This document shows positions 1 through 34,412 of a stretch of 47,882 bases of DNA, one piece after another. Numbering within the stretch: the first letter of the stretch is position 1; each line of letters begins with the position of its first letter. The stretch is taken from the IMG/VR virus record IMGVR_UViG_2897375277_000002. One strand, 5' to 3'. The notes under the pieces were generated by a model. That model worked only from the letters and a program-made list of their open reading frames with translations, did not search any database and was not told the origin of the DNA. The position numbers and the translations under genes were made by a program. The DNA comes from a virus (taxonomy: Duplodnaviria > Heunggongvirae > Uroviricota > Caudoviricetes).

Positions 1-54
1 CATCCAACCGCAGCACGTTCTTGCATACGACGTGCTGCGGCATAATCCCAATGA

Positions 55-639
55 TTACTCCCTGACAGGGTTCGTAGGCCACTCAATATCAGGTGCAGTT
101 GATGTATCAACACGGTTCAGCAACACCCGATACTTTTTCCAGGCTTCCAGCAATGAGGTTTCTTCCTCCGTTGCGATTTCCAGATCTACAGCATCCTGAA
201 GTGGCGCAATATGCTCACTGGCTACCTGCATCAGGCTGTTTTTTGTTTCTTCCGCCTCCCGGATCCGGAATAGTTTTTCTGCTTCTGCATCTTTCACCCA
301 GGCTGTGCCGTTCCACTTCTGATATTCCCCTTCCGGCGATAACCAGGTGACATTTTCCGGTAACGGACCGAGTTCAGAAATAAATAACGCGTCCCCTGAT
401 GCCACGTCATAAACTGTTTTACCCCGATGGTCTTCAACAAGATGCCACGATGCATCATCACTGTTGAAAACAGCCACGAAGCCAGCCGGAATATCTGGCG
501 GTGCAATATCGGTACTGTTTGCTGGCAGACCTGTATGAGGCGGAATGTATGCGTCACCTTCACCAATAAATTCATTAGTTCCGGCCAGCAGATTATAAAT
601 TGTTATGGTCCGTGGTTGTTCACTCATTCTGAATGCCAT
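55..639 (-). CDS. tfa: tail fiber assembly protein
   Basis: 194-aa ORF directly downstream of stf; translation [12 protein letters not shown]... matches lambda-type Tfa as I recall it; ATG at 637-639 (cat on + strand). Confidence 0.85.
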
Positions 640-3599
640 TATGCGAGCCTCACAATGTAGTTAAATGCGATGTTTTTGACGGTGTTTTCCGCGTTACCAG
701 CAGCGTTAACGGTGATGGTGTGTCCATGTGAGCCAATCGCAACAGAGTGCGTATGAGCACCAATACCGACAGTATGCGCGTGTGCACCTGCAGATGCTGC
801 TGTGCCGGACAGTGAGTGGGTATGCGCGCCAGCAGAGTTCGTATTCGCCATCGTGCCAACGCCCAGACCAACCGCCCCTTGTACCTGGTATGAGTTACTT
901 CCGACAGCTGTAGAACCATACTGATAGGTGTCTTTAAAAGTGCTTGTATTAAATCTGCGACCATCAACGTGCGAATGTGCTCCAGCCGAGCTTGTAGAGC
1001 CGCTCAGACTGTGCGTATGCGCCCCGGTGTTATTCGTGGATTTAGTGCCGTAATCAAACGACGATGTGGTTTTCGTACCCAAATCCGTACTGGATGCGCT
1101 GGCGCTGTGGGTGTGCGATTTAATGCCGTCCTGCTCCTGAGACAATACGGCACGACCACTGGCGGGCTTGCCCTTAATCGTCCAGCCACGCATATCAGGG
1201 ATCACGCCTGACGGATAAGCGACTGCAAGTTTCGGGTAGGCAGATTTGTCAAAAGTCTGCCCCTGCATCAGGGCATAACCAGACGGAACGGTATCCGATG
1301 GCCACGGGATTGGTGCGCCAGGCGGATAAAACTGCTCTGATGGCGTATAGAGTGAATAAACTGTACCGTCCGTTAACCCTTCCGGCTTATTAGCAGAATA
1401 TGCTGGTGACGTATGAATCGTCACGCTGGCATTACTGGTATAATCCCATTGAATATTTACACCAGTCGCATAATTTCCGATTGCAACGTAAATATCGTAA
1501 GTATCACCAGATGTATTGACCCAGGCAAAATTTGTAAACCCTGTCGATGTGCGCTGCCATAAAGCACCAGTAATCCCCTTCGGATTACCATTACCTGCAC
1601 GCAAAACAAGTTCAGATATACCTGCCTGTTGAGGTGACCCCACGTTAAATCCCGCGCCACCAATCAACGTAATTGAAACAACAGAACTCTCCTGTGGCAT
1701 GGTTACCGTTGCTAATTTGAACCAACCAGCACCACCGCTGAATGACATTGTTGTTGAGTTAAGCGTACCAATATCTTTCGGCGTCAGTGTTATATCCGCT
1801 GAAAGCGCCTTACCATTCACCTTACGGGCAGAAGGTACCCGACCATTCGCATTATCATTAGCTGCTTTCACTGCTTTCGGTGTCGCGGCAAGCGTTTCAG
1901 ATGCGCTGTTGGTTGCACTACTGAGCTGGACAATTCCTTTTTGTGCTGTCGTAGCGTCCTGAGCAGTATATTTCCCGTTAGCAAGGTCATAGGCTGCCTT
2001 TACCGACTTTGGCGTTGCCGCCAGCATTTCAGATGTGCTGTTGGTCGCGTTGCTAAGCTGAACTATCCCTTTCTGTGCTGTCGTTGCATCCTGTGCGGTG
2101 TATTTCCCGTTAGCCAGCTCATACGCGGCCTTAACGGCTTTTGGCGTTGCCGCCAGTGACTCGGAAGTGCTGTTAGTCGCACTGCTGAGCTGTACTATCC
2201 CCTTTTTCGTCGTGCTCGCATCCTCAAGCGCCACGGCGGATGCAATATCCTCTGCCCGTTTTGCCGCTGTCTCGGCGCGCGTTGCCGCGGATTCCGCCGT
2301 ACTTTTGCTCTGAGCTGCCGCCGTCGCACTGCCAGCTGCCTCTGTCGCCTTCGTGGATGCCGTCGTGGCGCTGCCCTTTGCTGCTGACGCCTGTCTGGTC
2401 GCCTCATCTTTTGAAGCAGACGCCGATGATGCCGATGACGCCGCCGAACTGGCGGACGATGCGGCAGCCGTTTTTGAGGATTCTGCGCTGGTTTCCGACG
2501 CTTTCGCGTTCGTCTCGGATGTCTTCGCTGCGGAAGCAGACCTCGCTGCTGCGCTGGCCTGTTCAGTGGCTTCGCCAGCCTTCGTTGTGGCTGTTGAAGC
2601 GGACGATGCGGCGCTTTCTGCCGATTTTCCGGCGGCGCTAGCACTGGCTGAGGCCTGCCCGGCACTTGTTGACGCTGCACTGGCAGACGACGCAGCCGCT
2701 GTTTTTGAGCCTGCCGCAGCTGAGGCACTCTGTTCCGCTGCCGTTTCAGAAGACCTGGCGTTTGTCTCAGACGTCTTTGCCGCCTTCGCGGAATTGCCTG
2801 CCGCCGTTGCCGAGGAAGCGGCACTACTGGCGCTTGATGATGCGTTCGTTTCTGATGATTTCGCTGCCTCTTTTGAGGCCGACGCATCCCGGGCTGAGGT
2901 GGCAGCTTCTGACGCCTTCGTGGTCGCGGCGGATGCAGAAGTGGCTGCTGATTGTTGTGACGCTGCCGCATTCGTTTCTGACGTTTTCGCCGCAGCGGCA
3001 CTGGTAGCTGCCGCGCTTTTTGAGGACTCTGCAGCAGCAGCACTTTTCGATGCTTCACTGGCCTTTGCTGATGCCGTTCCTGCGCTGGAAGATGCTGACT
3101 GAGCAGATGATGCAGCCTGTCCGGCTGACGTGCTGGCGGCACGAGCTGAGCCTGCAGCATCGGTTGCATGAGTTGCCGCCTCACTGGCAGATGTGCTGGC
3201 ATCACTGGCTGACTTCTTCGCGGCAGCCGTGTTCTGTGCCACTGCGGACGCGTTACGCGCCACCTCTTCCACCATCAGTTCAAAACGTCGCAGAGCCTCC
3301 GGACGGGCATCATCCTCCGTCATGGCACCGAGAAAATCATTCAGCGTACCGGGTCGGGAATCTTCATACACGGTGATGGTCCCGGCATGTGACGGCGGGA
3401 ATCCTTCCACCAACAGAATAACGCTGTACTGACCGTACTCAACGTCCATGCTGTAACGCCCGGCTTCATCCGGATTTTCTGAGGCCAGCGTGTTCACCAC
3501 CACCGTGGTGCTGTTACGTTTTGCTTTCAGCTGGATTGTGCAGTTCTGTACCGGTTTTCCTGTGCCGTCTTTCAGTACACCTGAAATCTTTACTGCCAT
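639..3599 (-). CDS. stf: side tail fiber protein (mosaic: lambda-like N-terminus, Ala/Ser-rich shaft, collar-like and His-rich C-terminal domain)
   Basis: ORF track gives 639..3605 from a GTG; in-frame ATG at 3599 yields [20 protein letters not shown]... as in lambda Stf. Long low-complexity Ala/Ser/Thr segment, three tandem 41-aa repeats, C-terminal GAHTHSLSG / GAHAHT His-rich repeats. Confidence 0.9.
1858..2232 (-). repeat. three tandem ~123-bp coding repeats inside stf (each encoding ~[44 protein letters not shown])
   Basis: Near-identical 41-aa units visible in the Stf translation and as repeated DNA on the + strand; boundaries approximate. Confidence 0.7.
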
Positions 3600-3610
3600 A
3601 TTCACCCCAC

Positions 3611-3637
3611 AAAAAAGCCCGCCTGAACCGGCGGGCT
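3611..3637 (-). terminator. putative intrinsic terminator downstream of lom
   Basis: On minus strand: AGCCCGCC-GGTTCA-GGCGGGCT stem-loop followed by TTTTTT; lies between lom stop and stf start. Confidence 0.5.
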
Positions 3638-3663
3638 GTCATAACACTGTGTTACCTGGCTAA

Positions 3664-4263
3664 TCAGAACTTATAACCGACACCCACGATGAAACCGTCA
3701 GTGCGCCAGTCGCCACTGCCGGAGCCTTCATAAGCGATATCAATGGCCACGGATTCGGTCGGGTTAAACTGCACGCCAGCTCCCCACGCCAGAGACGTGT
3801 TGCTGTGGCGACCGTCATCACTTCCGGTCAGCACATCGTGCGTTTTCCCCTTATTGTCAGTTACGCGGATATAATCCCCGGAGAAAGTCGACACACGGCT
3901 GTAAGCCATACCCGCCATCGCATACGCGCTGAACCATTCATTCACGCGCACAGACGGCCCCGCCATCACGCTGAACCAGCGGTTACGCACGGAATCTTCA
4001 TGCCAGCGGGTATCGCTGTAACGGGTAAGCTGGCGATTCTTGTCTCCTGCATAGCTGAATGACGTCACCAGCCCCAGTGTGTCCGTAAACTCATAACGGT
4101 ATTTCACGTTAATCCCGTTAAGATCATCGCTGCCGGGAACGTTCGTCGAGGCATGAAGATACCCCGCGCTCAGCGTGGACTGATGTTCAGATGCCCATGC
4201 AGGCGCACCGGATACGGCCAGACAAATGGCTGCGGACAAAATGGCGGCATAAAGTTTACGCAT
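3664..4263 (-). CDS. lom: outer membrane protein Lom (Ail/Lom family)
   Basis: 199-aa ORF with signal peptide ([24 protein letters not shown]) and C-terminal ...GVGYKF beta-barrel ending; matches lambda Lom as recalled. Confidence 0.9.
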
Positions 4264-8460: not shown

Positions 8461-9101
8461 TTGTCGGTATACCTCTCTCGTTTGCTCAGTTGTTCAGGAA
8501 TATGGTGCAGCAGCTCGCCGTCACCACAGTAAATGGCGGCATGATTCGGCACCGATGAACCAAAACAGCACAGCAGCACATCGCCCGGTTGTGCTGATGA
8601 CAACGGCACCTGATACAGCCCTGTGGCCTCCAGATTATCCAGATAGAGATTCTGACCGTGACGCCACCAGTCATCCCCGCGATGAAAATCCGGCATCTCA
8701 ATCCCCGCCAGATGATAAGCATCCCGGAACAGCGTGTAACAGTCCGTCACCCCGTGCTCAAAGCGCCGCCCGGTGAGATGCGGCACACAGCGGAACTTAT
8801 GAATCGTCCCCCGGCAGACCAGCCACCACGGCAAATCACTCTGCACCTGCAGCCGCCGGTCAGCCTCACTCAGCCAGGGCAGACCACCGGGATGACTGTG
8901 GACCAGTGCCACAATCTCACCCTGCATCTCTGCCTGCAGCCAGTCCTCCGGAGCCATCCGGAAATAATCCTCCGGCTCACCGGAAATATTCACGCAGGGA
9001 AAATATCTTTCCCCCTCCGGCGCTCTCACCACGAAGCCGCACGACTCCGCTGGCGCACATCGCCGGGCGTGCGCCAGAATCGCTGATTCTGCCTGTGTCA
9101 T
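8358..9101 (-). CDS. K: tail assembly protein K (JAB/MPN + NlpC/P60 domains)
   Basis: 247-aa ORF beginning 6 nt after L stop; contains HSHPGGLPWLSEAD (JAMM-like) motif. Classical lambda annotation is 199 aa, which would start at the internal Met at 8957. Overlaps I by 103 nt. Confidence 0.85.
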   Translation of the reverse strand: MTQAESAILAHARRCAPAESCGFVVRAPEGERYFPCVNISGEPEDYFRMAPEDWLQAEMQGEIVALVHSHPGGLPWLSEADRRLQVQSDLPWWLVCRGTIHKFRCVPHLTGRRFEHGVTDCYTLFRDAYHLAGIEMPDFHRGDDWWRHGQNLYLDNLEATGLYQVPLSSAQPGDVLLCCFGSSVPNHAAIYCGDGELLHHIPEQLSKRERYTDKWQRRTHSLWRHRAWRASAFTGIYNDLAAASTFV

Positions 9102-9106: not shown

Positions 9107-9805
9107 TTACTGCGAAAGTTTGTTAATGGAAAGGAAGCCGCCAAAGTTGCCGACGTTATTGCGGAACTTACAACCGCTCAGGCATTTGCTGCATTTATCC
9201 TTCGTGATATCGGACGTTGGCTGGTCATATTCATCCGCGACCGCCGGACCGTGATAACCGCACTCATCGCCGCGATAGGTCCAGGTGCAGGTGTTGGCCA
9301 GCATGATACGTCCCGGAAAAACAGCGCCGTCCGTTTCCGTCGGCGTGGACAGTACAAAAGAGGCACTCACCGCGCTCAGTTCGCTGCACTGCTCAATGCG
9401 CCAACGGCTGATCACCTCCTGCTCCGGATCGGCGTCACTGTTTCCGTTGACGAAGTTCACCGCATCCAGAAAACGGGCGTAAACCTTACGCCGGACCACC
9501 GTTCCGCCGACCAGACTCTGCAGATCTTCCGCCATCCCGGTGACCATACCGTACAGGTTAGAAACCGTCAGCGTGGGGCGCGTACTGGTGCCTTTGCCAT
9601 TCAGTTCAAAACCACTCCCCTGAATGGGATACGGCTGATACTGTCGCCCCTGCCAGGTGACCGGCTCACCTTTTTCGTTCTGCTCATTACAGAAAAAATA
9701 ACGTTCTCCACCGACCTCTGTCAGATCGATTTCCCAGAGCACCACGCTGGCCGACTGCTCCGCACGGGTGCATTCATTCAGTGTTTCCTGCCGGATATCC
9801 TGCAT
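9107..9805 (-). CDS. L: tail tip assembly protein L
   Basis: 232-aa ORF MQDIRQETLNECTRAEQSASVVLWEIDL... with C-terminal Cys cluster (CSKCLSGC); matches lambda gpL. Confidence 0.9.
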   Translation of the reverse strand: MQDIRQETLNECTRAEQSASVVLWEIDLTEVGGERYFFCNEQNEKGEPVTWQGRQYQPYPIQGSGFELNGKGTSTRPTLTVSNLYGMVTGMAEDLQSLVGGTVVRRKVYARFLDAVNFVNGNSDADPEQEVISRWRIEQCSELSAVSASFVLSTPTETDGAVFPGRIMLANTCTWTYRGDECGYHGPAVADEYDQPTSDITKDKCSKCLSGCKFRNNVGNFGGFLSINKLSQ

Positions 9806-10134
9806 CAGTTCACCACCTGTTCAAACTCTGCGCTGAACTCAACACGCAGCATACTGACCCGCGACGACCATTTTGCGCAGGTCACCTTTATCTGCCGCCA
9901 CTCATAAGGCGGCGTCCACAGAAAGGCTTTCCAGCCCCCGTGCTCAGCCAGAAACGACTCCAGCGCCGCGGCCTCCCAACGGGGAACAGAAAGCGTCACG
10001 CTGTACGTTTTCAGGTCGGCATTCAGCCCGGCAGGCGCTCGCTGGGAATAGCCATCACCAAAGCGCACTTTCCTGACGGAAGGGGCCGAAGCCACATCCA
10101 TACCGGGTTTCACTTTCCAGCGGAAGGTCTTCAT
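9805..10134 (-). CDS. M: tail tip assembly protein M
   Basis: 109-aa ORF between H and L; matches lambda gpM length and sequence as recalled. Confidence 0.9.
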   Translation of the reverse strand: MKTFRWKVKPGMDVASAPSVRKVRFGDGYSQRAPAGLNADLKTYSVTLSVPRWEAAALESFLAEHGGWKAFLWTPPYEWRQIKVTCAKWSSRVSMLRVEFSAEFEQVVN

Positions 10135-12680
10135 CGTCCACCTCCGGAGAACAGACCACCATCGCGCATCTGTGCCTGAATTTCATCACGGGCACCCTTG
10201 CGGGCCATGTCATACACTGCCTTCAGCATCTGTGGACCTGGCAGACCATTCGTACCGTCGTTCTGAATCACCACGTTGTTGTTCTGCTCAAATCTGATAC
10301 CCTCTGAACGCCGCATTTGCGCCGGACTTCCGGTGCCACCGACATAACCACCGGTGGCATAGCCGCGCATCAGCCGGTAAAGATTCCCCACGCCAATCCG
10401 GCTGGTTGCCTCCTTCGTGAAGACAAATTCACCACGGTGAACAATCCCCGCTGGCTCATATTTGCCGCCGGTTCCCGTAAATCCTCCGGTCGCAAAATGG
10501 AATTTCGCCGCAGCTGCCTGAATGGCTGTGCCGCCTGACGCTGATGCGCCGCCGCCAATGGCGCTGCCTATACTTCCGACAATCCCCACCATTGCCTGCT
10601 TAAGCAGAATTTCTGTCATCATGGACAGCACGGAGCGGGTGAAGCTGCGCCAGTTCTGTTCACTGCCGGTCAGCATCGCCGCCATATTCTGTGCAATACC
10701 ATCAAAGGTCTGCGTGGCAGCACTTTTAACCTGCGACATACTGTCCGTGGCGCTCTCTTCCCACTCACTCCAGCCTGACCTGAGGCCTGCCATCCAGCTC
10801 CCGCGAAGCTGGTCTTCAGCTGCCCAGGTCTTTTTCTGCTCTGACATGACGTTATTCAGCGCCAGCGGATTATCGCCATACTGTTCCTTCAGGCGCTGTT
10901 CCGTGGCTTCCCGCGCTGCCTGCCGGTCAGTCAGCCCCCGGTTTTTTGCATCAATGGCGGCCCGTTTTGCCCGTTGCTGCTGTGCGAATTTATCCGCCTG
11001 CTGTGCCAGCGCGTTCAGGTGCTCCTGATAGGTGACCTTGTCGCCAAGTGCAGCCAGCTGGCGTTTGTACTCCAGCGTCTCATCTTTATGCGCCAGCAGG
11101 GATTTCTCCTGTGCAGACAGCTGGCGACGTTGCGCCGCCTCCTCCAGTACCGCGAACTGACTCTCCGCCTTCCACAAATCCCGGCGCTGCTGGCTGATTT
11201 TCTCATTTGCTCCGGCATGCTTCTCCAGCGTCCGGAGTTCAGCCTGAAGCGTCAGCAGGGCAGCATGAGCACTGTCTTCCTGACGATCGCCCGCAGACAC
11301 CTTCACGCCGGACTGTTTCGGCTTTTTCAGCGTCGCTTCATAATCCTTTTTCGCCGCCGCCATCAGCGTGTTGTAATCCGCCTGCAGGATTTTCCCGTCT
11401 TTCAGTGCCTTGTTCAGTTCTTCCTGACGGGCGGTATATTTCTCCAGCGGCGTCTGCAGCCGTTCGTAAGCCTTCTGCGCCTCTTCGGTATATTTCAGCC
11501 GTGACGCTTCAGTATCGCTCTGCTGCTGCGCATTTTTGTCCTGTTGACTCTGCTGTTCAGCCTTCTTTCTCGCGGCTTCAAGCGCAAGACGGGCCTTTTC
11601 ACGATCATCCCAGTAACGCGCCCGCGCTTCATCGTTAACAAAATAATCATCCTTGCGCAGACTCCAGATGTCGTCCGCTTTCTTAAACGCAGCCTCTGCC
11701 TTAATCAGCATCTCCTGCGCGGTATCAGGACGACCAATATCCAGCACCGCATCCCACATGGATTTGAATGCCCGCGCTGTCCTGTCTGCCCAGGTCTCCA
11801 GCGTACCCATGTTCTCTTTCAGGCGGCGGGTCTGGTCATCAAACCCTTTCGTCGCGGCCTCGTTCGCCGCCTGCAATGCCCCGGCTTCATCGCCGGAACG
11901 CTGCAACTGAGCAACATACGCAATCTGCTCCGCCGTCACGTTATGGAACTGGCGTGCCATCGCTGTCAGCCCTGACGTCGGGTCTGTGGTCAGCTTCCCG
12001 AAGGCTTCAGCGACCTTGTCCACCTCCACGCCGGATGCAGAGGAGAAACGCGCCACACTCTGGCTGATGGACGCAATCTGAGCCTCACCGCTTACCCCCG
12101 CCTTAACCAGTGCGCTGAGTGACTCGCTGGTCTGGTTAAACGTCAGCCCTGCCGCCTGCCCGGCTCTGGACAGGACCAGCATACGATCTGCCGTCAGTCC
12201 CGCCTGATTGCCGGAAAGGACCAGCGTTTTGTTGAAATCGGACAGGGTTGAGTTGCCCTGATACCAGGCATACGCCAGCGCACCGGTCGCCACCGCCAGC
12301 GAGGTGGTCCCCACCATCGACAGGGTGATCGCACCGGCAAGCCCCCTGAACATGGGGATCATCCCGCCGAAGGAGTCCTTCACCTGCCCCCCCTGTTGCA
12401 GCAGGATCAGCCACGGACTTTGCCCGCCTGCAAGCTGCGTGGCCACGTCGGTGAACTGTGCAGGCAGCATACGCATGGCGGCTTTATACTGCCCGATGGA
12501 AATCCCCGCTTTCTGTGCAGCCAGCGCCTGTCGGCTCAGCGACTGTTCAACGACTGCCGCTGTTTTTTTCGCATCACTTTCCGTACCGGAAAAATGACGC
12601 CTGACTCTGGCCATCTGCTCGTCAAATCTGGCCGCATCCAGACTCAAATCAACGACCAGATCGCCTACCGGTTCAGCCAT
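10131..12680 (-). CDS. H: tail tape measure protein H
   Basis: 849-aa ORF, coiled-coil rich with Gly-rich C-terminus; position after G/T; lambda gpH-like. Confidence 0.9.
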   Translation of the reverse strand: MAEPVGDLVVDLSLDAARFDEQMARVRRHFSGTESDAKKTAAVVEQSLSRQALAAQKAGISIGQYKAAMRMLPAQFTDVATQLAGGQSPWLILLQQGGQVKDSFGGMIPMFRGLAGAITLSMVGTTSLAVATGALAYAWYQGNSTLSDFNKTLVLSGNQAGLTADRMLVLSRAGQAAGLTFNQTSESLSALVKAGVSGEAQIASISQSVARFSSASGVEVDKVAEAFGKLTTDPTSGLTAMARQFHNVTAEQIAYVAQLQRSGDEAGALQAANEAATKGFDDQTRRLKENMGTLETWADRTARAFKSMWDAVLDIGRPDTAQEMLIKAEAAFKKADDIWSLRKDDYFVNDEARARYWDDREKARLALEAARKKAEQQSQQDKNAQQQSDTEASRLKYTEEAQKAYERLQTPLEKYTARQEELNKALKDGKILQADYNTLMAAAKKDYEATLKKPKQSGVKVSAGDRQEDSAHAALLTLQAELRTLEKHAGANEKISQQRRDLWKAESQFAVLEEAAQRRQLSAQEKSLLAHKDETLEYKRQLAALGDKVTYQEHLNALAQQADKFAQQQRAKRAAIDAKNRGLTDRQAAREATEQRLKEQYGDNPLALNNVMSEQKKTWAAEDQLRGSWMAGLRSGWSEWEESATDSMSQVKSAATQTFDGIAQNMAAMLTGSEQNWRSFTRSVLSMMTEILLKQAMVGIVGSIGSAIGGGASASGGTAIQAAAAKFHFATGGFTGTGGKYEPAGIVHRGEFVFTKEATSRIGVGNLYRLMRGYATGGYVGGTGSPAQMRRSEGIRFEQNNNVVIQNDGTNGLPGPQMLKAVYDMARKGARDEIQAQMRDGGLFSGGGR

Positions 12681-13511
12681 ACCGGACTCCTCCTGCGATC
12701 CCTTCTGATACTGTCATCAGCATTACGTCATCCTCCGTCATGTCCGCCACATCCGGGGAAGCGGGGATAACTTCATTCCCGTCCGGGCCAAAACGAACGC
12801 CTCCGGCAAGCCCTGCCGCTTTCTGCATCAGCACATCATCTTCAGGCTCTTCGTCAGCCTCGCGCCGGTTCAGCAGACTGAAATCCAGCGGATGCATATC
12901 CGGATCGCTGAAAAACAGGCTGAGCACGGTGTACGTCAGCCCGGAAAAGTGCATATCCAGCAGAACATCATGAAAATAATGGGTACTGTAAAAGCGGTGC
13001 CAGTCGGCATACTCCGTGGATGACATCCCGGCAAGCATGGCGCGCCAGTCGGGTCGCCCCATCTCACGCGCCAGTTTCAGGGCAAAACTCAGCTCACCGT
13101 CGAACACTTTCCCGCAGAAACAGGCTCTGCTGGCCCGGCGTCATCTGCCTGTTCAGGGGCATTATTCACCACAAACTCATACATTCCGGACAGCCGGTAC
13201 ACCACGTTTTCAGCATGAGAAATTGCCTCCGTGGGCCAGGTGGTAAGCACTTCCAGCTCAATCTGTTTAACGGCTTCATTCATGGACGGCATCTGCGTCT
13301 TCTGCGGATGGTTATGCCACAGGGACATCGCCACCAGAAACGCGCCGGTTCTGATGGCGTCTTCCACAGTAAACTTCCGGTTGCTGTCTGACTCCGCCTG
13401 TTCTGCCTGCCGTTTCATCAGGGCGAGATGCTCAATGCGCTGCAGGGCTGACAGTTCAGAAAGCGTGACGGTCACACCGTTATGTTCAAATGATTCGGTT
13501 TTCAGGAACAT
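12673..13511 (-). CDS. G-T: tail assembly chaperone G-T fusion (requires -1 programmed ribosomal frameshift)
   Basis: T frame (ORF 12673..13107; VFDGELSFALKLAREMG...) opens exactly at the slippery heptamer at the end of G; there is no independent ATG start for T. Confidence 0.75.
13089..13511 (-). CDS. G: tail assembly chaperone G
   Basis: 140-aa ORF MFLKTESFEHNGVTVTLSELSALQRIEHL... matching lambda gpG. Confidence 0.9.
   Translation of the reverse strand: MFLKTESFEHNGVTVTLSELSALQRIEHLALMKRQAEQAESDSNRKFTVEDAIRTGAFLVAMSLWHNHPQKTQMPSMNEAVKQIELEVLTTWPTEAISHAENVVYRLSGMYEFVVNNAPEQADDAGPAEPVSAGKCSTVS
13107..13113 (-). other. slippery heptamer G GGA AAG for the G->T -1 frameshift
   Basis: Minus-strand GGGAAAG (ctttccc on + strand) in the G zero frame (GGA-AAG = Gly-Lys), 5 codons before the G stop. 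Confidence 0.8.
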
Positions 13512-13526
13512 CGCTGACTCTCCGGA

Positions 13527-14213
13527 TTAACTGGCGGTGACGGTAATTTCTGCAACCGCAGCAAACTCACCATTACCGGATACAACCGGAATGTTGACCT
13601 TGCCTGCAGCAACGCCGTTCACGGTGATGGTCATACCACTGACCGACACGGTGGCTTTTGTTTTATCCGCAGACACCGCACGAAAGCTCTTGTCGGTTAC
13701 GCCCTCCGGCTGGAAGGCCACGGTCAACGTGGTGCTCTGCCCTTTCACCACCGAGGTGCTGGCAGGCGTGACGGTCATGCCGGTTGCCGCTGTTACCGTG
13801 CTGCGATCTTCTGCCATCGACGGACGTCCCACATTGGTGACTTTCACCGTGCGGGTGATCACTTCCTTCGCCGTCACCGCCTTACCGATACTGCTGACCC
13901 AGCCACGGAACACATCGACCGTGCCGTTCGGGAAGCGGATTTTATAGGCACGGGTATCGCCTTCATTAAACCACGCCAGCAGCGCCTGCTGCCCCTGCTC
14001 TCCGGGCATCCACGCCAGCGTGAAGCTGGTATCTCCGGCAGATTTCTGCCCCTGCCCGGTCGCAGTCCAGTCTGCATCTTCATCATCGAGATAGCTGTCG
14101 TCATAGGACTCAGCGGTCAGTTCGCCGGGCGTCAGGTCTTTAACTTTTGCCAGACGCGACCAGTCAACGTCTGAAAGCGGATTCGCATAAGGGTCACCGC
14201 TCCCCTTATAAAC
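13527..14213 (-). pseudogene. V: major tail protein V, C-terminal fragment (gene split by IS insertion)
   Basis: In-frame translation ...[18 protein letters not shown]...AEITVTAS matches lambda gpV from about residue 19 onward; the frame runs into the IS end at 14214. Confidence 0.9.
14206..14213. repeat. 8-bp target site duplication TTATAAAC (left copy)
   Basis: Identical 8-mer flanks both IS ends (14206-14213 and 16913-16920); both copies are V coding sequence. Confidence 0.8.
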
Positions 14214-14243
14214 GTAAGCGACTCGTCAGAACCGTATTGATAT

Positions 14244-15815
14244 TTACTGAGAGCTCAGATCAACTTTCCAGGGCAACAGATCGCGTACCCGGTTTGCCGG
14301 CCAGTCCTGGATATGTTCAATGACGTAACGCAGCCACTTTTCTGGCTCCACATTGTTCAGACGGCATGTGCCGATCAGCGAGTACAACACCGCCGCATGT
14401 TCACCACCGCTGTCGGAACCCGCGAACATCCAGTTTTTCCGGCCTACGGCCACTCCCCGTAAGGCGTTCTCTGCGATGTTGTTGTCGATTTCCACCCAGC
14501 CATTACTGCAGTACACGTTCAGTGCATCCCACTGTTTCAGCAGGTATGCGAACGCTTTTGCCGTATCTGAGTGACGCGACAGTGTTTTCATCTGTTGCTG
14601 TATCCAGTCATACAGTGACTGCATCAGTGGCGCGGCTCTGGCTTTTCTTGCCGCCAGACGCTGTTCTGCTGAACAGCCCCGGACCTCTGCCTCGATGGCA
14701 TACAGTTCACCGATACGCTGCAGGGCTTCCGTGGTGATGTAGGTGGGCGCTCTTGCATGCACATCGTGGATTTTTCTCCGGGCATGAGCCATACACGCGG
14801 CTTCCGTTATTCTGCCGGATTCGTATAACGCCCGGTAACCACCGTAAGCATCGGCCTGAAGCACACCGCTGTAACCGGCCAGGTGATTTTGTGGATGGAT
14901 ACCTTTCCGGTCCGGACTGTACGCGAACCAGACCGCCGGGGGCATCTGTGAACCGGCGTTACGGTCATCACGGACGTAGACCCACAGCCGGGCTGTCCGG
15001 GTTTTACCGCTGCCCGGCTCCTGGACCGGGACGGGGATATCATCAGCATGGACTTTACCGGGCATCAGCACATACTGGCGCAGGACGTCATACAGCGGCT
15101 CCAGCAGTTCAGCAACAGCACCTGTCCAGCGCCCCAGTGTGGCACGGCTCAGCTCCACTCCCTGACGACGGTATATTTCTGACTGGCGGTATAACGGCAG
15201 ATGGTCTGCATATTTCCCGGTGACAACATGGGCCAGAAGCCCCGCTCCGGCATAACTGCGTGCAATGGGTTTTGAAGGTACTGGTGCCTGCACGATATGG
15301 TCGCACCGGCAACAGGCCTGTTTCGGACGTTGTGTTTCGATAACCTTAAAGGCGCTGCTGATAAGCTCCAGTTGCTCTGACACATCACATCCCAGAGAAC
15401 TGAGTTCACCACCACAGGCAGGACAGCATTCCTCTTCCGGCCGGATAACCCGGGTTTCACGGGGAAGTGAGGCCGGTAACGGTTTACGGGCTGAAGACTG
15501 GCGCAGGGCGGATGGCAGTACCGGGTCATATTGCTCACCCAGCGTTTCCGCCATTTCTTCCTGAAGTGCGCTGATTCGCTCCTGTGCTTCCTGTATCTGC
15601 CGTTCGGTTTTTGCACGAAGTTTTTCTGAGCTTTTACCGAACTGCATACGTTGCAGTTTCGCAACCAGCGCCTTCAGCCGGTTGATTTCGGAAGCATAAG
15701 CCGCCACCCGCTGTGAGAGCAGGCGGTTGTATTCAGCCATCTGGCGGATGGTGTCCTGTTGCGTCTGCAACAGTGCCCGCAGGCGGGCGTTCTCATGAGC
15801 AAGTGAGGTGTCCAT
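14244..15815 (-). CDS. IS66-family transposase (TnpC-like)
   Basis: 523-aa ORF with N-terminal coiled coil and CxxC zinc-finger motifs (CCPACGGE...CCRCDH), typical of IS66 transposases. Confidence 0.85.
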
Positions 15816-15834
15816 ATCCTCACTTTACAACGGG

Positions 15835-16182
15835 TTATATGCGGATTCCAGCGCGTTCCGTTCGTTTCGGGTGCTTCCAGTTGATACCTTCAAGAAGCAT
15901 GGATAACTGAGCCGGAGTAAGGTGCACCTTGCCGTCACGGGTGACTGGCCAGACGAAGCGGCCCCGCTCCAGGCGTTTGGTGAAGAGGCACAGTCCGTCA
16001 CTGTCAGCCCACAACACTTTTATCTGGTCACCCCGGCGTCCGCGGAAGATGAACAGGTGTCCGGAGAACGGGTCATCCTTCAGGACGTTCTGAACTTTTG
16101 ATGCCAGGCCGTTAAAGCCATTTCGCATATCGGTGATACCTGCAACCAGCCAGATACGCGAACCTGCAGGGAGAGATATCAT
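15835..16182 (-). CDS. IS66 Orf2-like accessory protein (TnpB-like)
   Basis: 115-aa ORF MISLPAGSRIWLVAGITDMRNGFNGLA... typical IS66 orf2 product; ATGA overlap with the upstream ORF. Confidence 0.8.
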   Translation of the reverse strand: MISLPAGSRIWLVAGITDMRNGFNGLASKVQNVLKDDPFSGHLFIFRGRRGDQIKVLWADSDGLCLFTKRLERGRFVWPVTRDGKVHLTPAQLSMLLEGINWKHPKRTERAGIRI

Positions 16183-16859
16183 CAGTGGCTGCTCCCTTTT
16201 ATTTCGCGGATAAGTGTCTGTAATAACGCCGGCGTCAGTTTACCTTTAAGCCTGAGAGTTCCGGCCGGCAGAACCAGCTCACAACACAGACTGTCGGACG
16301 GTGTATTTATCTGCTCTGGTTCCTGTGCGGGGGCCGGGATTTTATTATCCGGCTCCGGCGTTAACGTCACGGGAAGCAGTGCCGGCATATTTTTTCCGGA
16401 AGGCAGCAGGCCACCTTTCCGGTATTGATGGCGCCAGTTGAAGAGCAGGTTATCGTTGATTCCGTTTTCCCGGGCGATCTGCGCCACACAGGCTCCGGGC
16501 TGCAGTGACTGCTCCACTAAGGCGATTTTAAACTCATAAGGGAAGTTGGGCCGCCGGGGACGTTTTTTTACCATGGGGGCTTCGGATATAACGGTGCTTT
16601 CAGGACGTACGACTGGTACCGTGGAAAATTGTCCGTAAAGGCAGGCATCAAGTTCCTGCTCCGACATGCCTGCGGGCAAAGGCCACGAAAGGCCAGCTCT
16701 CCGAAAGCGCACGAACATACTACAAACTGTTGATTTTGGTACACCCAGGCGACGCCCGGCCACAACCCGGGGTAAATGTTCTTCAAAGTGAAGACGTAAA
16801 GCTTCAGTGATCCAGGTCCGGTGTTTCATACGATAGTGTCCATTAAAAATGATGGACAT
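16182..16859 (-). CDS. IS66-family accessory protein (TnpA-like, HTH)
   Basis: 225-aa ORF, first gene of the IS operon; longer than typical TnpA so the true start may be internal. Confidence 0.6.
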   Translation of the reverse strand: MSIIFNGHYRMKHRTWITEALRLHFEEHLPRVVAGRRLGVPKSTVCSMFVRFRRAGLSWPLPAGMSEQELDACLYGQFSTVPVVRPESTVISEAPMVKKRPRRPNFPYEFKIALVEQSLQPGACVAQIARENGINDNLLFNWRHQYRKGGLLPSGKNMPALLPVTLTPEPDNKIPAPAQEPEQINTPSDSLCCELVLPAGTLRLKGKLTPALLQTLIREIKGSSH

Positions 16860-16912
16860 TATTTTTGTAGAGCCGGAGGAAACAGACCAGACGGTTTAAA
16901 TGAGCCGGTTAC

Positions 16913-16920
16913 TTATAAAC
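16913..16920. repeat. 8-bp target site duplication TTATAAAC (right copy)
   Basis: See left copy. Confidence 0.8.
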
Positions 16921-16974
16921 CCACAGGGTGGTCCCGGCACCTTTCACCGGCATTGTAGGATTTGGTACAGGCAT
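16913..16974 (-). pseudogene. V: major tail protein V, N-terminal fragment
   Basis: ATG at 16974 followed by [20 protein letters not shown], the lambda gpV N-terminus as recalled; interrupted at the IS boundary. The two fragments sum to 741 nt (246 aa + stop). Confidence 0.85.
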
Positions 16975-16981
16975 AGCGTCC

Positions 16982-17377
16982 TCACATTTCATAGGTAATG
17001 ACATAAGTCAGATCGGCTGAACTCCACAGGCCCGCATCATCGTCGCGCCGGTAGTCATAGCCGCTGGCCACCATACTGGTGATCAAATCTGACAGTGCCG
17101 GGATATCGCTCATCACCGGATAAATCCGGGACTCCATCCACGCATCCAGCTCTGAATCCGGCACCTGAGCAGGCAGGAAAACTTCGATATGCAGCTCCGC
17201 CTGCCAGGTATCGCTGTCCAGCTCTTCGCCCGTGTATTCAGCGCCGGTGAGATAAACGGCAACTGCCGGAAAATCCGCCTCATCAAAAACAGCGGGGCGA
17301 CCATCAAAAAACGTCGCCCCGGTGTCATGCTTCTCCAGTGCATCCAGTACGGCTGCACGGAGTTCAGTATGTTTCAT
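16982..17377 (-). CDS. U: tail tube terminator protein U
   Basis: 131-aa [29 protein letters not shown]... matching lambda gpU. Confidence 0.9.
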
Positions 17378-28608: not shown

Positions 28609-29340
28609 TTACATCATTTCTTTTTCTAAAAAAAATCTTGATGAATATTGATGGGGAGGAACACCAAAATATCTTCTGAAAACACTTACAAAATATGACG
28701 TGTTTTCATAACCGCATATCTCAGCAACTTTTCCAACAGAATATAAATTGTAGCTTAATAACCTTTCCGCCATCACCATTCGCTCTTCAAGAATTAATTT
28801 ACTAAATGATAAGCCTTCGTGCTTTAATTTTCTTTTTAACAGGCTTTCACTCAGATACAGCCTTGAAGATATATCACAAAGTCTCCATGCTGCAGATATA
28901 TCCGTGTGAATAATAGCCTTAACTTTACTTCCTAAACTATTAAGACATCCAAATAAAAAACTTTGCACTATTTTCTCTGAAGATAAGATAGCAAGACATG
29001 CAAGTGATATTTGATTTCTAACAACATCCACAGTTCTGCCATCACAATTCAAGCATGCAATCAAGTTCTTTAACAATGAAAAATCTTCACATTCCACCAT
29101 CAAGTATGCCGGATAAAACCTTCTTACAGAAAAAGGTGAGAGTGTGTTGCTTTTAAAGAAATCATTAACTGTTTTCTCTTCAACATCTACGATCATTACA
29201 TGATCTATATTTGATGAAAAAAAATCTTTTAAATTGTAATCAATGAGAACAGCACTTCCTTTTTTAAACAAAATATCTTCTTTACCAATTCGGACATCAA
29301 ACGAGTTCAACACCAAAATGATAGAACATATGTATGGCAT
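28609..29340 (-). CDS. AraC/XylS-family transcriptional regulator (cargo)
   Basis: C-terminal AraC-type HTH (VGKVAEICGYENTSYFVSVFRRYFGVPPHQY); ATG at 29340 preceded by AGGTGG; visibly AT-rich coding sequence; ORF track start is 29349 (GTG). Confidence 0.75.
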   Translation of the reverse strand: MPYICSIILVLNSFDVRIGKEDILFKKGSAVLIDYNLKDFFSSNIDHVMIVDVEEKTVNDFFKSNTLSPFSVRRFYPAYLMVECEDFSLLKNLIACLNCDGRTVDVVRNQISLACLAILSSEKIVQSFLFGCLNSLGSKVKAIIHTDISAAWRLCDISSRLYLSESLLKRKLKHEGLSFSKLILEERMVMAERLLSYNLYSVGKVAEICGYENTSYFVSVFRRYFGVPPHQYSSRFFLEKEMM

Positions 29341-29691
29341 ATTATCCACCTGATATCATTGGGGTTACACCAGGTAAGTATAGGTGGAAAATCAATATTC
29401 GCCAGTTCAACAATAAGGAAAATCTCATTGCATCACAAGTATAAAATCATGTATTTAACTCACAAAAACAAATTATTAAACTAATCTGTTATATTATATA
29501 TAGCTGCGTGGAATCATAATATTATATATTTTGACTGACATGTTTACCAAATTTAAATTGCATCTCAATGGTTTGTTCAGCGTAAACAGAGTTTTTATAC
29601 AAACTGACACTCTGGGTATCATAGTGTAGTTTTTACGATTGTAAATATCCTGCATGCAGGAACTCATCCTTTTGGATGATATCGCATACAA

Positions 29692-30651
29692 TTAATTTAC
29701 CATCAGTCTTAGAGCCAGTTCGTCCGGATAGGGATCGAAGTAATTCTGTGTAAGCAAGTAATCATTAGGATACTCACCCAGATAATGCTTCAGCAGAGTC
29801 AACGGCGCAAGAAGAGGTAATGTGCCAGAACGATAGTTAAGTATAACCTCGCTCAACTCTTTACGCTGGCGTGTACTTAAGTAGTTACTAAAATACCCCT
29901 GTATATGCATCAGCACATTCGTGTGATTTTTACGTGATGCAGGTTTTCTGAGAATCGCCATCAGCTTATCACGATACACCTCAAAGTATGATTCAAGGTC
30001 CGCCCACTCGTGTATTGCAGCCACAAATGGTCCCATATCTTTATAGCCTGCCTGACTATGCGCCAACAACTGAAGCTTATAACGACTATGAAAAGCTAAT
30101 AACTCTCTTCTTGATAATTTCTCCTTGTAAAGGTGATTGAGCTCATGCAAAGCAAAAACTCTTTCAACAAAATTCTCACGAAGCACTGGATCATGTAATC
30201 GCCCATCCTCTTCAACCGGTAGCCAGGAAAACTTTTCCATCAAAGTGCTCGTAAATAGTCCCACTCCATCTTTACGACCTCGATTACCATTTTCATCATA
30301 GACACGCACGCGCTCCATGCCACAGCTGGGAGATTTAGCACAAACCACAAACCCCGATACATCCTTTAATTTGTCCATATAAGAACGACTAAACTCTGTC
30401 ATTCTCTCTGTCACATCCTCATTCTGGTCGTGGCTGAAACACATCCGTATATTTCCTTGCGTCGAGCGCACAAGACGTAGAGCAGGACGCGGAACTGGCA
30501 GCCCTATAGCCATTTCCGGACATACTGGTCTGAATGTTACCCATTCCACTAATTTGTCCATTAAAAAGTCAGCTCTTTTGTGACCACCATCAAAACGAAC
30601 AGCAGAACCGGCCAAACAACCGCTGATTCCAATCACAGGTTTTTTTATCAT
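29692..30651 (-). CDS. DUF523/DUF1722-like fusion protein (YbgA-like C-terminus; function unknown)
   Basis: 319-aa ORF MIKKPVIGISGCLAGSAVRFDGGHKR...; N-terminus resembles DUF523 (TudS-like Cys-containing) proteins, C-terminal half YbgA-like; strong SD (GGGGAGAAT) before ATG. Family assignment from memory only. Confidence 0.55.
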   Translation of the reverse strand: MIKKPVIGISGCLAGSAVRFDGGHKRADFLMDKLVEWVTFRPVCPEMAIGLPVPRPALRLVRSTQGNIRMCFSHDQNEDVTERMTEFSRSYMDKLKDVSGFVVCAKSPSCGMERVRVYDENGNRGRKDGVGLFTSTLMEKFSWLPVEEDGRLHDPVLRENFVERVFALHELNHLYKEKLSRRELLAFHSRYKLQLLAHSQAGYKDMGPFVAAIHEWADLESYFEVYRDKLMAILRKPASRKNHTNVLMHIQGYFSNYLSTRQRKELSEVILNYRSGTLPLLAPLTLLKHYLGEYPNDYLLTQNYFDPYPDELALRLMVN

Positions 30652-30843
30652 ATTCTCCCCCTTGACTAATTCATTAACACATAAACTGTGTAGTGCACGG
30701 AATAAATTGCCTTTCTGGCGTCATCACTGACAATTTTTCTGTTATGGACTATTCCTAATATAGTATGAAAGTTCTTTAAGTGATCGGTCGTAATCATCTA
30801 TCTTTCATACTTACTCTCAACTATCAAAAGTACAGGATTTATT

Positions 30844-31368
30844 ATGAAGTTATGGCCTGTGTTGACTGGCATTGCACTCTCTTTCACTCTTATAGCATGT
30901 AAGGCCCCGACACCACCTAAAGGTGTGCAGCCGATTACAAATTTTGACGCCAACCGCTACCTCGGAAAATGGTATGAAATAGCTCGCCTCGAGAACCGGT
31001 TCGAACGTGGTCTGGAACAGGTCAGCGCTACCTATGGAAAACGGAACGACGGAGGGATTCGTGTACTTAACCGTGGATACGATCCAACGAAAAATAAATG
31101 GAGCGAGAGCGAAGGTAAAGCATACTTTACTGGAGATACTAAAACTGCAGCGTTGAAGGTTTCGTTTTTTGGCCCCTTCTATGGTGGCTATAATGTAATC
31201 AAACTGGATGATGAGTATAAGTATGCTCTTGTCAGTGGTCCGAACAGAGAATACCTATGGATTCTGGCAAGGACCCCAACTATTCCAGATAAAGTAAAAG
31301 CAGACTATGTGCGAACCGCTCAAAAGTTGGGATTCAATGTCAATGAATTATTATGGGTTAAACAATAA
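30844..31368 (+). CDS. bacterial lipocalin (Blc-like outer-membrane lipoprotein)
   Basis: 174-aa ORF with lipoprotein signal (LIAC lipobox) and lipocalin motifs (NFDANRYLGKWYEIARLENRFERG; KVSFFGPFYGGYNVI); oriented opposite to late transcription. Confidence 0.8.
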   Translation: MKLWPVLTGIALSFTLIACKAPTPPKGVQPITNFDANRYLGKWYEIARLENRFERGLEQVSATYGKRNDGGIRVLNRGYDPTKNKWSESEGKAYFTGDTKTAALKVSFFGPFYGGYNVIKLDDEYKYALVSGPNREYLWILARTPTIPDKVKADYVRTAQKLGFNVNELLWVKQ

Positions 31369-31396
31369 AATCCCTACCCGAAATAATACTTATTAG

Positions 31397-31423
31397 AAAA
31401 AAACCAGCCTTTGGGGAGGCTGG
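31397..31423 (-). terminator. intrinsic terminator downstream of Q (tR'-like)
   Basis: Minus strand CCAGCCT-CCCCAA-AGGCTGG followed by TTTTTTT; about 100 nt downstream of the Q stop, where lambda has PR'/6S RNA/tR'. Confidence 0.6.
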
Positions 31424-31523
31424 CTAAATCAGGAAACAAGCTGTTATATGATAATAACTACGTTGCGATTCCAACATTTAAAATGTTAGACTAATGAGAA
31501 TCAGACAGCAACTTTTCCTTTAA
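31424..31523 (-). promoter_or_regulatory. expected late promoter PR' / Q-utilisation region (not resolved to motifs)
   Basis: Position between Q stop and the tR'-like terminator; AT-rich; -35/-10 not confidently assigned. Confidence 0.35.
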
Positions 31524-31901
31524 TTATTTCGAACAATCAGCATCCATCTCCAATCGGAGATCCAACACCATCAGCATACCCTCCACTACGCCCTCAGCTT
31601 TCTGGAGCATCCTGCCAACCCAACAATCAGATCGCCCATGCTTACGTGCAAGCGCCATAAAAGTCATGCCGCCGACATAATAGTCCACCAATAAATCATG
31701 CAAATCGCTGTTGTTCTTTTTCAGACGGGCCATGCACCCGCAAATGATCATCGCGTCATCGTCACAACATTGCGGGCGAGATTTTACTTTTGAAGGAATT
31801 AATCCCTTAAAACCGGCGGCAATGGACGACCAGGTCACATCTTCATGATTATTAGCCGCCCACGCTCCCCAACGCTCAAGAACCATCTGAATATCACGCA
31901 T
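31524..31901 (-). CDS. Q: late-gene antiterminator Q (DLP12 QuuD / phage-82-type)
   Basis: Start set at [56 protein letters not shown]... matching DLP12 QuuD as recalled; ORF track extends 5 codons upstream. Confidence 0.85.
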
Positions 31902-31986
31902 CAACTTACTCCACAAAACTCAGACCAGAACGCCAATTACAAGCAAAAATCAACAAAACAGTATTAGTTGATTGTTATCTCTGACT

Positions 31987-32127
31987 TCATACTCCTGCTC
32001 CTGTCAGTGTTTTGGCGTAATTCTTCAGTATTCGGTAATCGGTCAAAACAGAGCCGGGGAAACGATATAAGCGCAGACGCCCCCAGCGGTGGCGAAGAAG
32101 TTCTGCCATATTAAACTCAAACATCAT
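31987..32127 (-). CDS. ylcG: small protein YlcG-like (46 aa)
   Basis: Unlisted small [49 protein letters not shown]; its ATG overlaps the rusA stop (ATGA); lies between rusA and Q as in DLP12. Confidence 0.5.
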
Positions 32128-33391: not shown

Positions 33392-33605
33392 GCTTCACCT
33401 CCGCAGAGGTCAAACGCTAGATGCAAAGAATTGCAGGTGCATTTCTGCATCTGTGAAGGGAGAAGAGAGTTTGGATTGTATGTGCGCATAAACGTCCCCG
33501 TTTAGCGCAGAAGTCACCGGAGTTGTTCAGGCTCCGGTGACATAATTATGCCGTGTTGATTTCCCAAAATCAAAATCGATAGAATTGCTCCTTCTTAAAA
33601 CACTT

Positions 33606-34403: not shown

Positions 34404-34412
34404 ACTCTCACC

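Follow-up and report, generated by a model that had tools for sequence, protein, structure and literature searches.

In our study, ISCro1, an insertion sequence of the IS66 family, was found within the tail-tube gene V of a lambda-like prophage of Escherichia coli (GenBank CP024282.1). It is highly probable (approximately 0.9) that the element was transposed into V, that the event was recent, and that loss of the tail tube is its expected consequence. The window studied here, that is, the whole stretch of DNA analysed, is 47,882 nucleotides (47.9 kb) long, and V was found to lie on its minus strand in two pieces.

The 5′ fragment of V was located at 16913–16974 (minus strand) and contained nucleotides 1–62 of the gene, which comprise codons 1–20 and two bases of codon 21. 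The ATG was found at 16974–16972 and the frame was broken after nucleotide 62. The fragment was 100% identical to residues 1–21 of lambda gpV; the first base of the IS completes Lys21, and a TAA inside the IS (16909–16911) comes next. The first four bases of ISCro1 (G-TAA) thus provide the end of Lys21 and a stop, so that the 5′ fragment encodes only residues 1–21 of gpV. The 3′ fragment, at 13527–14213 (minus strand), contained codons 19–246 and the stop codon, including the repeated 8 bp, and V ended at 13527. The initial annotation had placed the start of V at 16974 and its interruption at 16913, and both positions were borne out by minus-strand frame analysis. Its resumption point at 14213 was in frame, but nucleotides 14213–14206 are the second copy of the repeat, and the non-duplicated continuation of V starts at 14205. 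No in-frame start codon was found in the 3′ part between the upstream stop and Met87, where the longest ORF was 13527–14009 (160 aa), and an uninterrupted V reading frame for the full protein was absent.

When the element and one copy of the repeat were removed in silico, an in-frame ORF of 741 nt encoding 246 aa was restored. The joined fragments aligned with lambda gpV at 245 of 246 identical residues. The restored protein matched the Pfam families Phage_TTP_12 (2.5e-70) and Big_2 (1.5e-19), and the ORF contained the gpV-type features, namely an N-terminal tail-tube domain, a C-terminal Ig-like (Big_2) domain and a position between U and G. The tail terminator gene U (16982–17377, minus strand) was intact and encoded a protein 100% identical to lambda gpU, and the tail assembly chaperone gene G (13089–13511, minus strand), the first gene downstream of the disrupted V, was also intact. 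A tblastn search of the 47.9-kb window found no second V-like sequence, and V is therefore not intact elsewhere in it.

The inserted element occupied nucleotides 14214–16912 (minus strand; 2,699 bp), with tnpA-tnpB-tnpC running in the direction of the phage late operon. The whole element was 100% identical to many E. coli copies labelled ISCro1 by PGAP, and its identity was judged against these RefSeq/PGAP-labelled copies ("IS66-like element ISCro1 family"). The records whose best match to the element was at least 99% identical numbered 1,782. The element is multi-copy in E. coli. The tnpA gene (16182–16859, minus strand; 225 aa) contained an HTH_Tnp_1 domain at residues 102–159 (8.5e-15), whereas a Pfam search gave no significant match for the N-terminal ~100 residues. 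The ATG of tnpB (15835–16182, minus strand; 115 aa), which encodes an IS66 Orf2-like protein (TnpB_IS66, 4.7e-40), shares one base with the stop codon of tnpA. The tnpC gene (14244–15815, minus strand) encodes a DDE transposase of 523 aa with LZ_Tnp_IS66, zf-IS66, DDE_Tnp_IS66 and DDE_Tnp_IS66_C domains; the DDE_Tnp_IS66 match (2.5e-103) covered profile positions 1–283 of 284. The left terminal inverted repeat was GTAACCGGCTCATTTAAACCGTCTGG (16887–16912, minus strand) and the right one, at 14214–14239 (minus strand), had the reverse complement GTAAGCGACTCGTCAGAACCGTATTG. Both were GTAA-initiated and the pair was imperfect, with 18 of 26 positions identical.

Both ends of the IS were abutted by a perfect 8-bp direct repeat, GTTTATAA, which reads TTATAAAC on the plus strand. 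The first copy of this target-site duplication (TSD) was located at 16913–16920 (minus strand; lambda 9009–9016) and the second, adjoining the other IS end, at 14206–14213 (minus strand). This 8-mer occurs three times in the 47.9-kb window, and the chance of a given 8-mer abutting both ends is ~1.5e-5. Elements of the IS66 family (IS679 and others) have three ORFs, GTAA termini and 8-bp duplications, and all of these were found in the present element. The description in the initial annotation, which had recognised an intervening 2,699 bp with IS66-type tnpA, tnpB and tnpC, GTAA-initiated imperfect inverted repeats and flanking direct repeats, agrees with the exact length, the Pfam domain set and both kinds of repeat; the element is now assigned to ISCro1 through its match to the PGAP-labelled copies. 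TSDs of 8 bp were also present at 24 further ISCro1 copies. Mobility of ISCro1 is indirectly supported by the many independent insertion sites at which near-identical copies were found.

The window was 100% identical to CP024282.1 over the 18.55 kb compared, and the insertion was common to both. Three relatives (L102, L103 and L105) differed by 4 mismatches in 6.5 kb of flank (99.94% identical) and contained an intact V of 246 aa with a single GTTTATAA. Such near-identical prophages with an intact V and one copy of the 8-mer represent the empty site and argue for a recent insertion. A recent date is also indicated by the IS itself, which shows no difference from active-looking copies elsewhere. 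IS copies are a classic source of misassembly and ISCro1 is multi-copy in E. coli, so we considered an assembler having misplaced a copy in V. This is very improbable: the 8-bp sequence occurs once in the empty-site relatives and is perfectly duplicated here, as transposition but not misjoining would produce, and the same architecture was found at neighbouring positions in many independently finished genomes.

Apart from V, the prophage looks complete, and point defects are beyond the reach of sequence comparison. The initial annotation had likewise called it otherwise intact-looking, and the full-length late genes from nu1 to tfa, the presence of early and lysis genes, and the empty-site relatives are in keeping with this. 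The late operon was collinear with that of lambda (nu1-A-W-B-C-D-E-FI-FII-Z-U-V-G-T-H-M-L-K-I-J) at 88–100% amino acid identity, all genes being full length and V alone being split; from nu1 to tfa, V excepted, the alignments were full length and free of frameshifts or stops. In the cos region, lambda coordinates 1 and 48502 adjoin at window position 25924/25925. Lambda-type late genes were combined with a DLP12-type integrase and early region. Genes for integration, recombination and immunity were present (an integrase, a Xis-like HTH protein, exo, bet, gam, kil, a CI-like repressor, a Cro-like protein and CII), and the replication-to-lysis region contained O, P, ren, NinB, RusA, a Q-like protein, holin, endolysin and Rz. 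Small regulatory genes, an N analogue among them, were not recognised in the prophage.

That no N-like antiterminator was recognised could mean that the IS is only one of several lesions, in a prophage that was already defective or carries further point defects, and that a single insertion is too simple an account. Sequence does not reveal whether the repressor, Cro, Q and int/xis work, H has 849 aa rather than the 853 of lambda, and J shares only 88% identity with its lambda counterpart, all of which would fit such a history. We regard it as unlikely, because the late genes align end to end with the lambda proteins, the regulatory, replication and lysis modules gave full-length family matches, and V is intact in relatives whose flanks are 99.9% identical.

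In the event that we propose, a copy of ISCro1 would have transposed into the tail-tube gene V, and staggered cleavage of the target followed by repair would have duplicated the 8 bp at lambda 9009–9016. Translation of V would then end after 21 residues at the TAA of the IS terminus, and the remaining 225 codons, with no start signal before Met87, would be expected to yield no functional tail tube protein. Late transcription, antiterminated by Q, would be expected to continue across the IS, and the genes from G to J are probably still expressed. Without functional gpV, induction should lead to heads filled with DNA and to tail initiator complexes, with tails absent. The loss of tails, and with it the defective state of the prophage, is deduced from the genetics of lambda V mutants. 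Exceptions could arise where V is provided in trans by another lambdoid prophage, or where the IS is, on rare occasions, excised precisely between the two copies of the 8-bp repeat.

Either exception could leave the prophage functionally alive, with packaging, tails and transfer; this is possible, although we think it doubtful. In its favour, most of the 5,426 E. coli genomes carry U/V-type sequence, often in several copies; 4,095 of the 5,426 matched the U/V junction query, which also includes 200 nt of the IS. The packaging range of lambda accommodates 47.9 kb, and the window with its IS falls within it. In E. coli O157 Sakai, lambdoid prophages with head or tail defects were packaged and even transferred, apparently through complementation by co-resident prophages (PMC2669165). 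Since tail proteins can come in trans from other lambdoid prophages resident in the cell (PMC2669165), the term defective means non-autonomous here and not necessarily inert. Complementation would nevertheless leave this genome unable to make its own tail tube, which is the consequence that we propose.

The insertion site in V is not arbitrary: it lies within a stretch of ~260 bp, running from ~130 bp before the end of U through the U/V spacer to approximately nucleotide 128 of V, that has been repeatedly and independently hit by ISCro1 in other E. coli strains. In a survey of 5,426 complete E. coli genomes (RefSeq), at least 15 independent ISCro1 insertions were found in 245 bp (lambda 8821–9065), against ~1.2 expected. 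The 15 insertions occupied 10 distinct targets, each with its own 8-bp TSD, and both orientations were present. The enrichment at U/V relative to the surrounding 4.3 kb had a binomial P of 8e-15. A wider count gave 17 independent insertions in 12 different 8-bp targets (lambda 8821–9082), a density approximately 40-fold that of the late operon around them, and in diverged prophages some identical targets had received as many as four insertions. With control probes placed at other points of the late region, no insertion was found inside the probe, and no ISCro1 insertion was found in the survey from nucleotide 112 of V to ~2 kb downstream. In a sample of IMG/VR contigs, only one of 28 ISCro1 insertions in lambda-like genes was at V, so that the enrichment depends chiefly on the RefSeq survey. 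The target preference of ISCro1 was weak and palindromic, with A/T at TSD positions 3 and 6 in 86% of the sites and, at the second base outside the TSD, C on the left and G on the right.

We lean slightly towards lambda 8821–9082 being a regional hot spot for ISCro1 in lambda-like prophages. Selection or retention offers another account, in which the transposase has no preference and insertions elsewhere have been lost; every insertion of the cluster affects the expression of U or V, and both orientations are present, as expected if only gene inactivation counts. This account is improbable, since tail formation would be lost just as well through an insertion at any other point of V, or in G, T or H, yet none was found in the ~2 kb beyond nucleotide 112 of V. 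Inactivation of a tail gene does not rescue the host from lysis on induction, and a host benefit limited to these 260 bp is hard to see. The repeated use of identical 8-bp targets in prophages whose flanks differ by 1–5% points to site choice. If the regional hot spot reflects true targeting, the IS66-family transpososome may recognise a larger-scale feature of the DNA (for example, a bend, a structural state or a bound protein), which would offer an initial insight into how targets are chosen in a family with a poorly known mechanism.

Several local explanations of the clustering were tried and rejected. Mimicry of the IS ends was not supported: the best 30-nt matches to IRL and IRR in lambda lie elsewhere (e.g., 30728 and 22491) with none at U/V, and the terminal 150 nt of either end aligned to the hot spot no better than to 86–93% of other 300-nt tiles. 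AT-richness did not account for the cluster, as a dip to 45% GC at lambda 8900–8960 is equalled or exceeded by dips at 9710 and 10220 without insertions. A local cluster of good targets was likewise rejected; a matrix built from sites outside the hot spot ranked the held-out hot-spot sites only moderately, and more high-scoring positions were found at 9550–10550, where there was no insertion. No IHF consensus was found between lambda 8475 and 9942, and at U/V there were no promoter-like or terminator-like signals and no unusual single-strand folding (z-score −1.75). A preference for gene ends was absent at the 14 sites outside the hot spot (KS p = 0.48). An apparent single orientation in a one-sided junction search was due to query bias, both orientations being recovered by the two-sided query. 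The tnpA end faced the U/V boundary in 13 of 17 insertions, which was not significant (Fisher p = 0.057, with the centre chosen post hoc). No account of an ISCro1 or IS66 hot spot in lambda U/V or tail genes came up in a limited literature search.

The finding is ordinary prophage damage and matters little taken alone; it is made less unusual by the RefSeq annotation, which already flags such events in other genomes. It is a clean textbook case in which a recent IS insertion makes a complete-looking prophage non-autonomous, and a single disrupted essential gene of this kind can be missed by callers that judge prophage intactness by counting genes. With the corresponding empty site preserved in a near-identical relative, it can serve as a convenient natural V-null allele. 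The part possibly worth further work is the recurrent use of U/V by ISCro1 across unrelated E. coli strains. To our knowledge, the target choice of the IS66 family is essentially uncharacterised, and the 260-bp insertion-attracting fragment could serve directly in transposition assays.

Among known hot spots, that of IS1 in pBR322 is located at an IHF site. In the afa/dr regulatory region, ISCro1, ISEc10 and another insert share one site (PMC8764528). Like these two, the U/V stretch combines many independent insertions within a short distance with no strict target sequence, whereas searches of it for an IHF-like motif, promoter, terminator, unusual structure or IS-end mimic were negative. The name ISCro1 was first given to the element in Citrobacter rodentium ICC168, which carries 24 copies as a result of its expansion (PMC3072379). 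Every copy examined here was 2,699 bp long with an 8-bp TSD and the order tnpA-tnpB-tnpC, and only the insertion site differed; the ISCro1 of ST131 was given as 2,824 bp (PMC8764528), in contrast to the 2,699 bp of the present copies. ORF organisation, Pfam domains, terminal GTAA and the 8-bp TSD are common to ISCro1, IS679 and other IS66-family elements, but IS679 is a different member, listed apart from ISCro1 in C. rodentium (PMC3072379). The 225-aa tnpA ORF, with ~100 residues upstream of HTH_Tnp_1, is a feature of ISCro1 itself. With regard to the consequence for the phage, heads form in lambda V amber mutants and tails do not. The loss of gpV after residue 21 should likewise amount to a null allele, although its cause here is an IS and not a nonsense mutation. 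Lesions in morphogenetic genes and a biological role through complementation connect the present case with the prophages of E. coli O157 Sakai (PMC2669165), which carry multiple lesions, whereas the prophage described here appears to have one.

In the reading of positions 13400-17100, the ATG of gene V was found at 16974 on the minus strand, and the gene was broken after nucleotide 62 (16913) by an insert of 2,699 bp spanning 16912-14214. The octamer GTTTATAA, which occurs three times across the entire window, lies flush against both ends of the insert (16913-16920 and 14206-14213), confirming the 8-bp target duplication proposed in the initial annotation. Removal of the insert together with one octamer in silico restored a 741-nt ORF, and V therefore resumes in frame, as had been claimed. 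The 246-aa product matched Phage_TTP_12, the lambda tail tube family (2.5e-70), plus Big_2, and was identical to lambda gpV at 245 of 246 positions. The 5' fragment encodes 21 residues followed by TAA; the insert opens with G-TAA, which completes Lys21 and then stops translation, and gpV is truncated at residue 21. In the 3' fragment a TGA lies in frame five codons ahead of the junction, and no start codon was found ahead of Met87 (ORF 13527-14009). An intact V elsewhere in the window was looked for, and no second V-like sequence was found.

The insert ends, GTAACCGGCTCATTTAAACCGTCTGG and, inverted, GTAAGCGACTCGTCAGAACCGTATTG, match at 18 of 26 positions and form imperfect terminal inverted repeats initiated by GTAA. 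The insert contained three ORFs, all co-directional with the phage late genes: tnpA (225 aa; HTH_Tnp_1), tnpB (115 aa; TnpB_IS66), whose ATG overlaps the tnpA stop codon, and tnpC (523 aa), with a leucine zipper, a zinc finger, a DDE_Tnp_IS66 match covering profile positions 1-283 of 284 and an IS66 C-terminal element. The inverted repeats and the IS66-type genes are thus those read earlier from the sequence. By its ORF set, GTAA termini and 8-bp duplication the insert belongs to the IS66 family, and it entered V by a DDE-type insertion with duplication of 8 bp. Numerous E. coli plasmids and complete genomes contain the full 2,699 bp at 100% identity, and there the transposase is annotated as 'IS66-like element ISCro1 family'. 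The element was matched in 3,018 of 5,426 genomes, and the best match reached at least 99% identity in 1,782 records. The name ISCro1 was given in Citrobacter rodentium, in which the element has multiplied to 24 copies (PMC3072379).

The exact V::IS junction was not found in the RefSeq complete-genome collection. CP024282.1 (GCA_002741375.1) encodes an 849-aa tape-measure protein identical to that of the window, and it showed the same V::IS architecture with 100% identity across 18,550 bp. Three further assemblies sharing this tape-measure allele (loci L102, L103 and L105) contained an intact V of 246 aa, a single GTTTATAA copy at the insertion site and 4 mismatches to the window across 6.5 kb of flank upstream of the junction. 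Together with the window they are a classical filled-site/empty-site pair, which demonstrates that the transposition was recent and speaks against misassembly.

The window is a lambda-like prophage in reverse orientation. Lambda nu1, A, W, B, C, D, E, FI, FII, Z, U, G, T, H, M, L, K, I and J aligned end to end at 88-100% identity, from first to last residue, which bears out the description of the morphogenetic genes besides V as intact-looking. The two ends of the lambda genome (coordinates 1 and 48502) abut at window 25924/25925, the arrangement expected of a prophage. A Lom-like gene, the side tail fibre gene and tfa were found 3' of J. The side tail fibre gene (639-3605, minus strand) is one unbroken ORF of 988 aa, whereas the lambda reference contains two ORFs (orf-401 and orf-314); the prophage encodes a complete Stf plus Tfa. 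The other arm contained genes for a Rha-like regulator, Rz, endolysin, holin, a Q-like antiterminator, RusA, an HNH protein, NinB, ren, P and O, together with genes for a CII-like protein, a Cro-like HTH protein (40193-40420) and a CI-like repressor (40495-41223), the genes kil, gam, bet and exo, and genes for an Xis-like HTH_17 protein and for a tyrosine integrase that ends at the window edge. The early region is similar to that of the DLP12-site prophages (intD, ybcK, ybcM). Two genes directly downstream of the CI-like repressor (41292-42720, plus strand), in the position held by rexAB in lambda, matched the PADLOC candidate defence system PDC-M11 (A, 357 aa, 2e-133; B, 125 aa with an ASCH domain, 7e-52). 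The nin/Q-to-lysis region (28609-37596) contained non-phage cargo resembling that of DLP12-site prophages: a large YbcK-like serine recombinase (35429-36955), a QacE/EmrE-like small multidrug transporter (37210-37596), two AraC-type regulators (28609-29349 and 33606-34403), a PEBP-family protein, a lipocalin and a DUF523/DUF1722 protein. Apart from V, the prophage looks complete.

The lambda tail tube subunit is gpV, and phages with a null V allele form heads but lack tails. As lambda late transcription is Q-antiterminated, it would be expected to read through the IS, and G-J would still be expressed. The window with the IS measures 47.9 kb, so the genome would remain within packaging range, and V could on rare occasions be restored by an exact excision of the IS between the 8-bp repeats. 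Since co-resident lambdoid prophages can complement defective ones (PMC2669165), the prophage should be called non-autonomous, not dead.

In a junction search, which detects one orientation only, ISCro1 was found beside U at slightly differing offsets in other genomes, and the seven insertions retrieved each had their own perfect 8-bp duplication. A second query, composed of a 200-nt probe covering the 3' end of U and V nucleotides 1-62, the IS and the reverse-complemented probe, covered either orientation and ~2 kb to each side of the probe. It gave 34 records, whose junctions were mapped to lambda coordinates. At least 17 independent insertions, at 12 different 8-bp targets and in both orientations, were found in a hot spot of ~260 bp around the U/V junction (lambda 8821-9082, window 16850-17110; loci L001-L007, L082, L088-L093, L099 and L101 besides the window). 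The IS was opposite to the late genes at 8821-28, 8885-92 and 8940-47 (four genomes: L089, L091, L092, L101) and co-directional at 8906-13, 8928-35, 8948-55, 9008-15, 9009-16 (the window), 9029-36, 9058-65 and 9075-82 (an IMG/VR contig); at 8961-68 it was once co-directional and twice opposite (L004, L088, L099). Among genomes sharing 8940-47 or 8961-68 the flanks differ by 1-5% and the IS copies by 0-2 nt, indicating independent insertions at the same octamer. Another reused octamer, with flank and IS differences in the same ranges, was found at lambda 8525-8532 (L094, L095), and some reused octamers were occupied in both orientations. Such reuse in prophages with diverged flanks suggests that ISCro1 has strongly preferred individual sites despite its weak consensus.

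The insertion density in the hot spot was ~40-fold above that of the surrounding late operon. In the rest of the surveyed 4.3 kb no more than six events were found, two of them at 8525 (one in each orientation) and the others at 7615, 7623, 8198 and ~8693, with none in the survey from lambda 9083 to ~11,060. In RefSeq only, 15 of 21 events fell within 245 bp against 1.2 expected (binomial P = 8e-15), and 10 of 15 when distinct positions were counted (P = 8e-10). The ISCro1 copy of EC1722-1 (L006) is 2,607 bp with tnpC annotated as frameshifted, hence a decaying copy, and the prophage of strain A1 (L007) contained an extra IS3-family insertion in FI, a sign of stepwise prophage decay. E. coli O103:H2 strain 129 (L096, locus 1-4200) contained a tandem ISCro1 pair beside a truncated U, suggesting insertion beside an existing copy or an IS-mediated deletion.

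Two control probes covered prophage copy numbers similar to those of the U/V probe. For the gene C probe, at least six or seven events lay no more than 2 kb away, with no insertion within the probe among the matches listed, and the H/M junction probe gave four events and none within the probe itself. Among the gene C matches listed, a second recurrent site was found at ~lambda 6199, around nucleotide 60 of the major capsid gene E, in both orientations and in several unrelated strains (H159-H162, H164, H167; also L061). A large set of EHEC genomes (O26:H11, O103 and related strains; H168-H187) has in common an ISCro1 insertion in the lambda-like prohead protease/scaffold gene C, ~25 bp from the probe, apparently one event that was inherited or has spread in the group. 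In IMG/VR contigs only 1 of 28 ISCro1 insertions beside lambda-like genes was at V, the others being scattered over J, A, B, C, D, E, FII, Z, I and lom, and this smaller sample tempers the U/V enrichment.

The 37 reconstructed targets (window and L001-L101) showed a weak palindromic preference, with A/T in 86% at each of duplication positions 3 and 6, A nearly absent from position 4, and a C and a G located two bases outside the duplication, the C on its leading and the G on its trailing side. When trained on other sites, a matrix predicted no hot-spot excess of good targets and placed more good sites at 9550-10550, where no insertions were found. GC content, likeness to IS ends, the IHF consensus, promoter/terminator patterns, single-strand folding and a general gene-end bias also fail to account for the clustering. 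In 13 of the 17 events the tnpA end pointed toward the U/V boundary, a tendency that is non-significant given the post-hoc choice of centre. Selection is unconvincing as the cause, because insertions deeper in V, or in G, T or H, would abolish tails equally and tail loss does not spare the host on induction. Targeting by some regional feature is a proposed explanation, judged more probable than not.

IS-disrupted prophage genes are commonplace, and in the sister cases RefSeq annotation already marks them as pseudogenes. Neither the element, a known IS, nor the gene, lambda V, is new. The initial finding is correct and its interpretation supported, but ordinary. In the literature searched, no account of lambda tail genes carrying ISCro1 or IS66 elements was found, and modest added interest comes only from the repeated hits at the U/V junction. 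One paper notes ISCro1 among the elements of an IS hot spot in the afa/dr regulatory region (PMC8764528).
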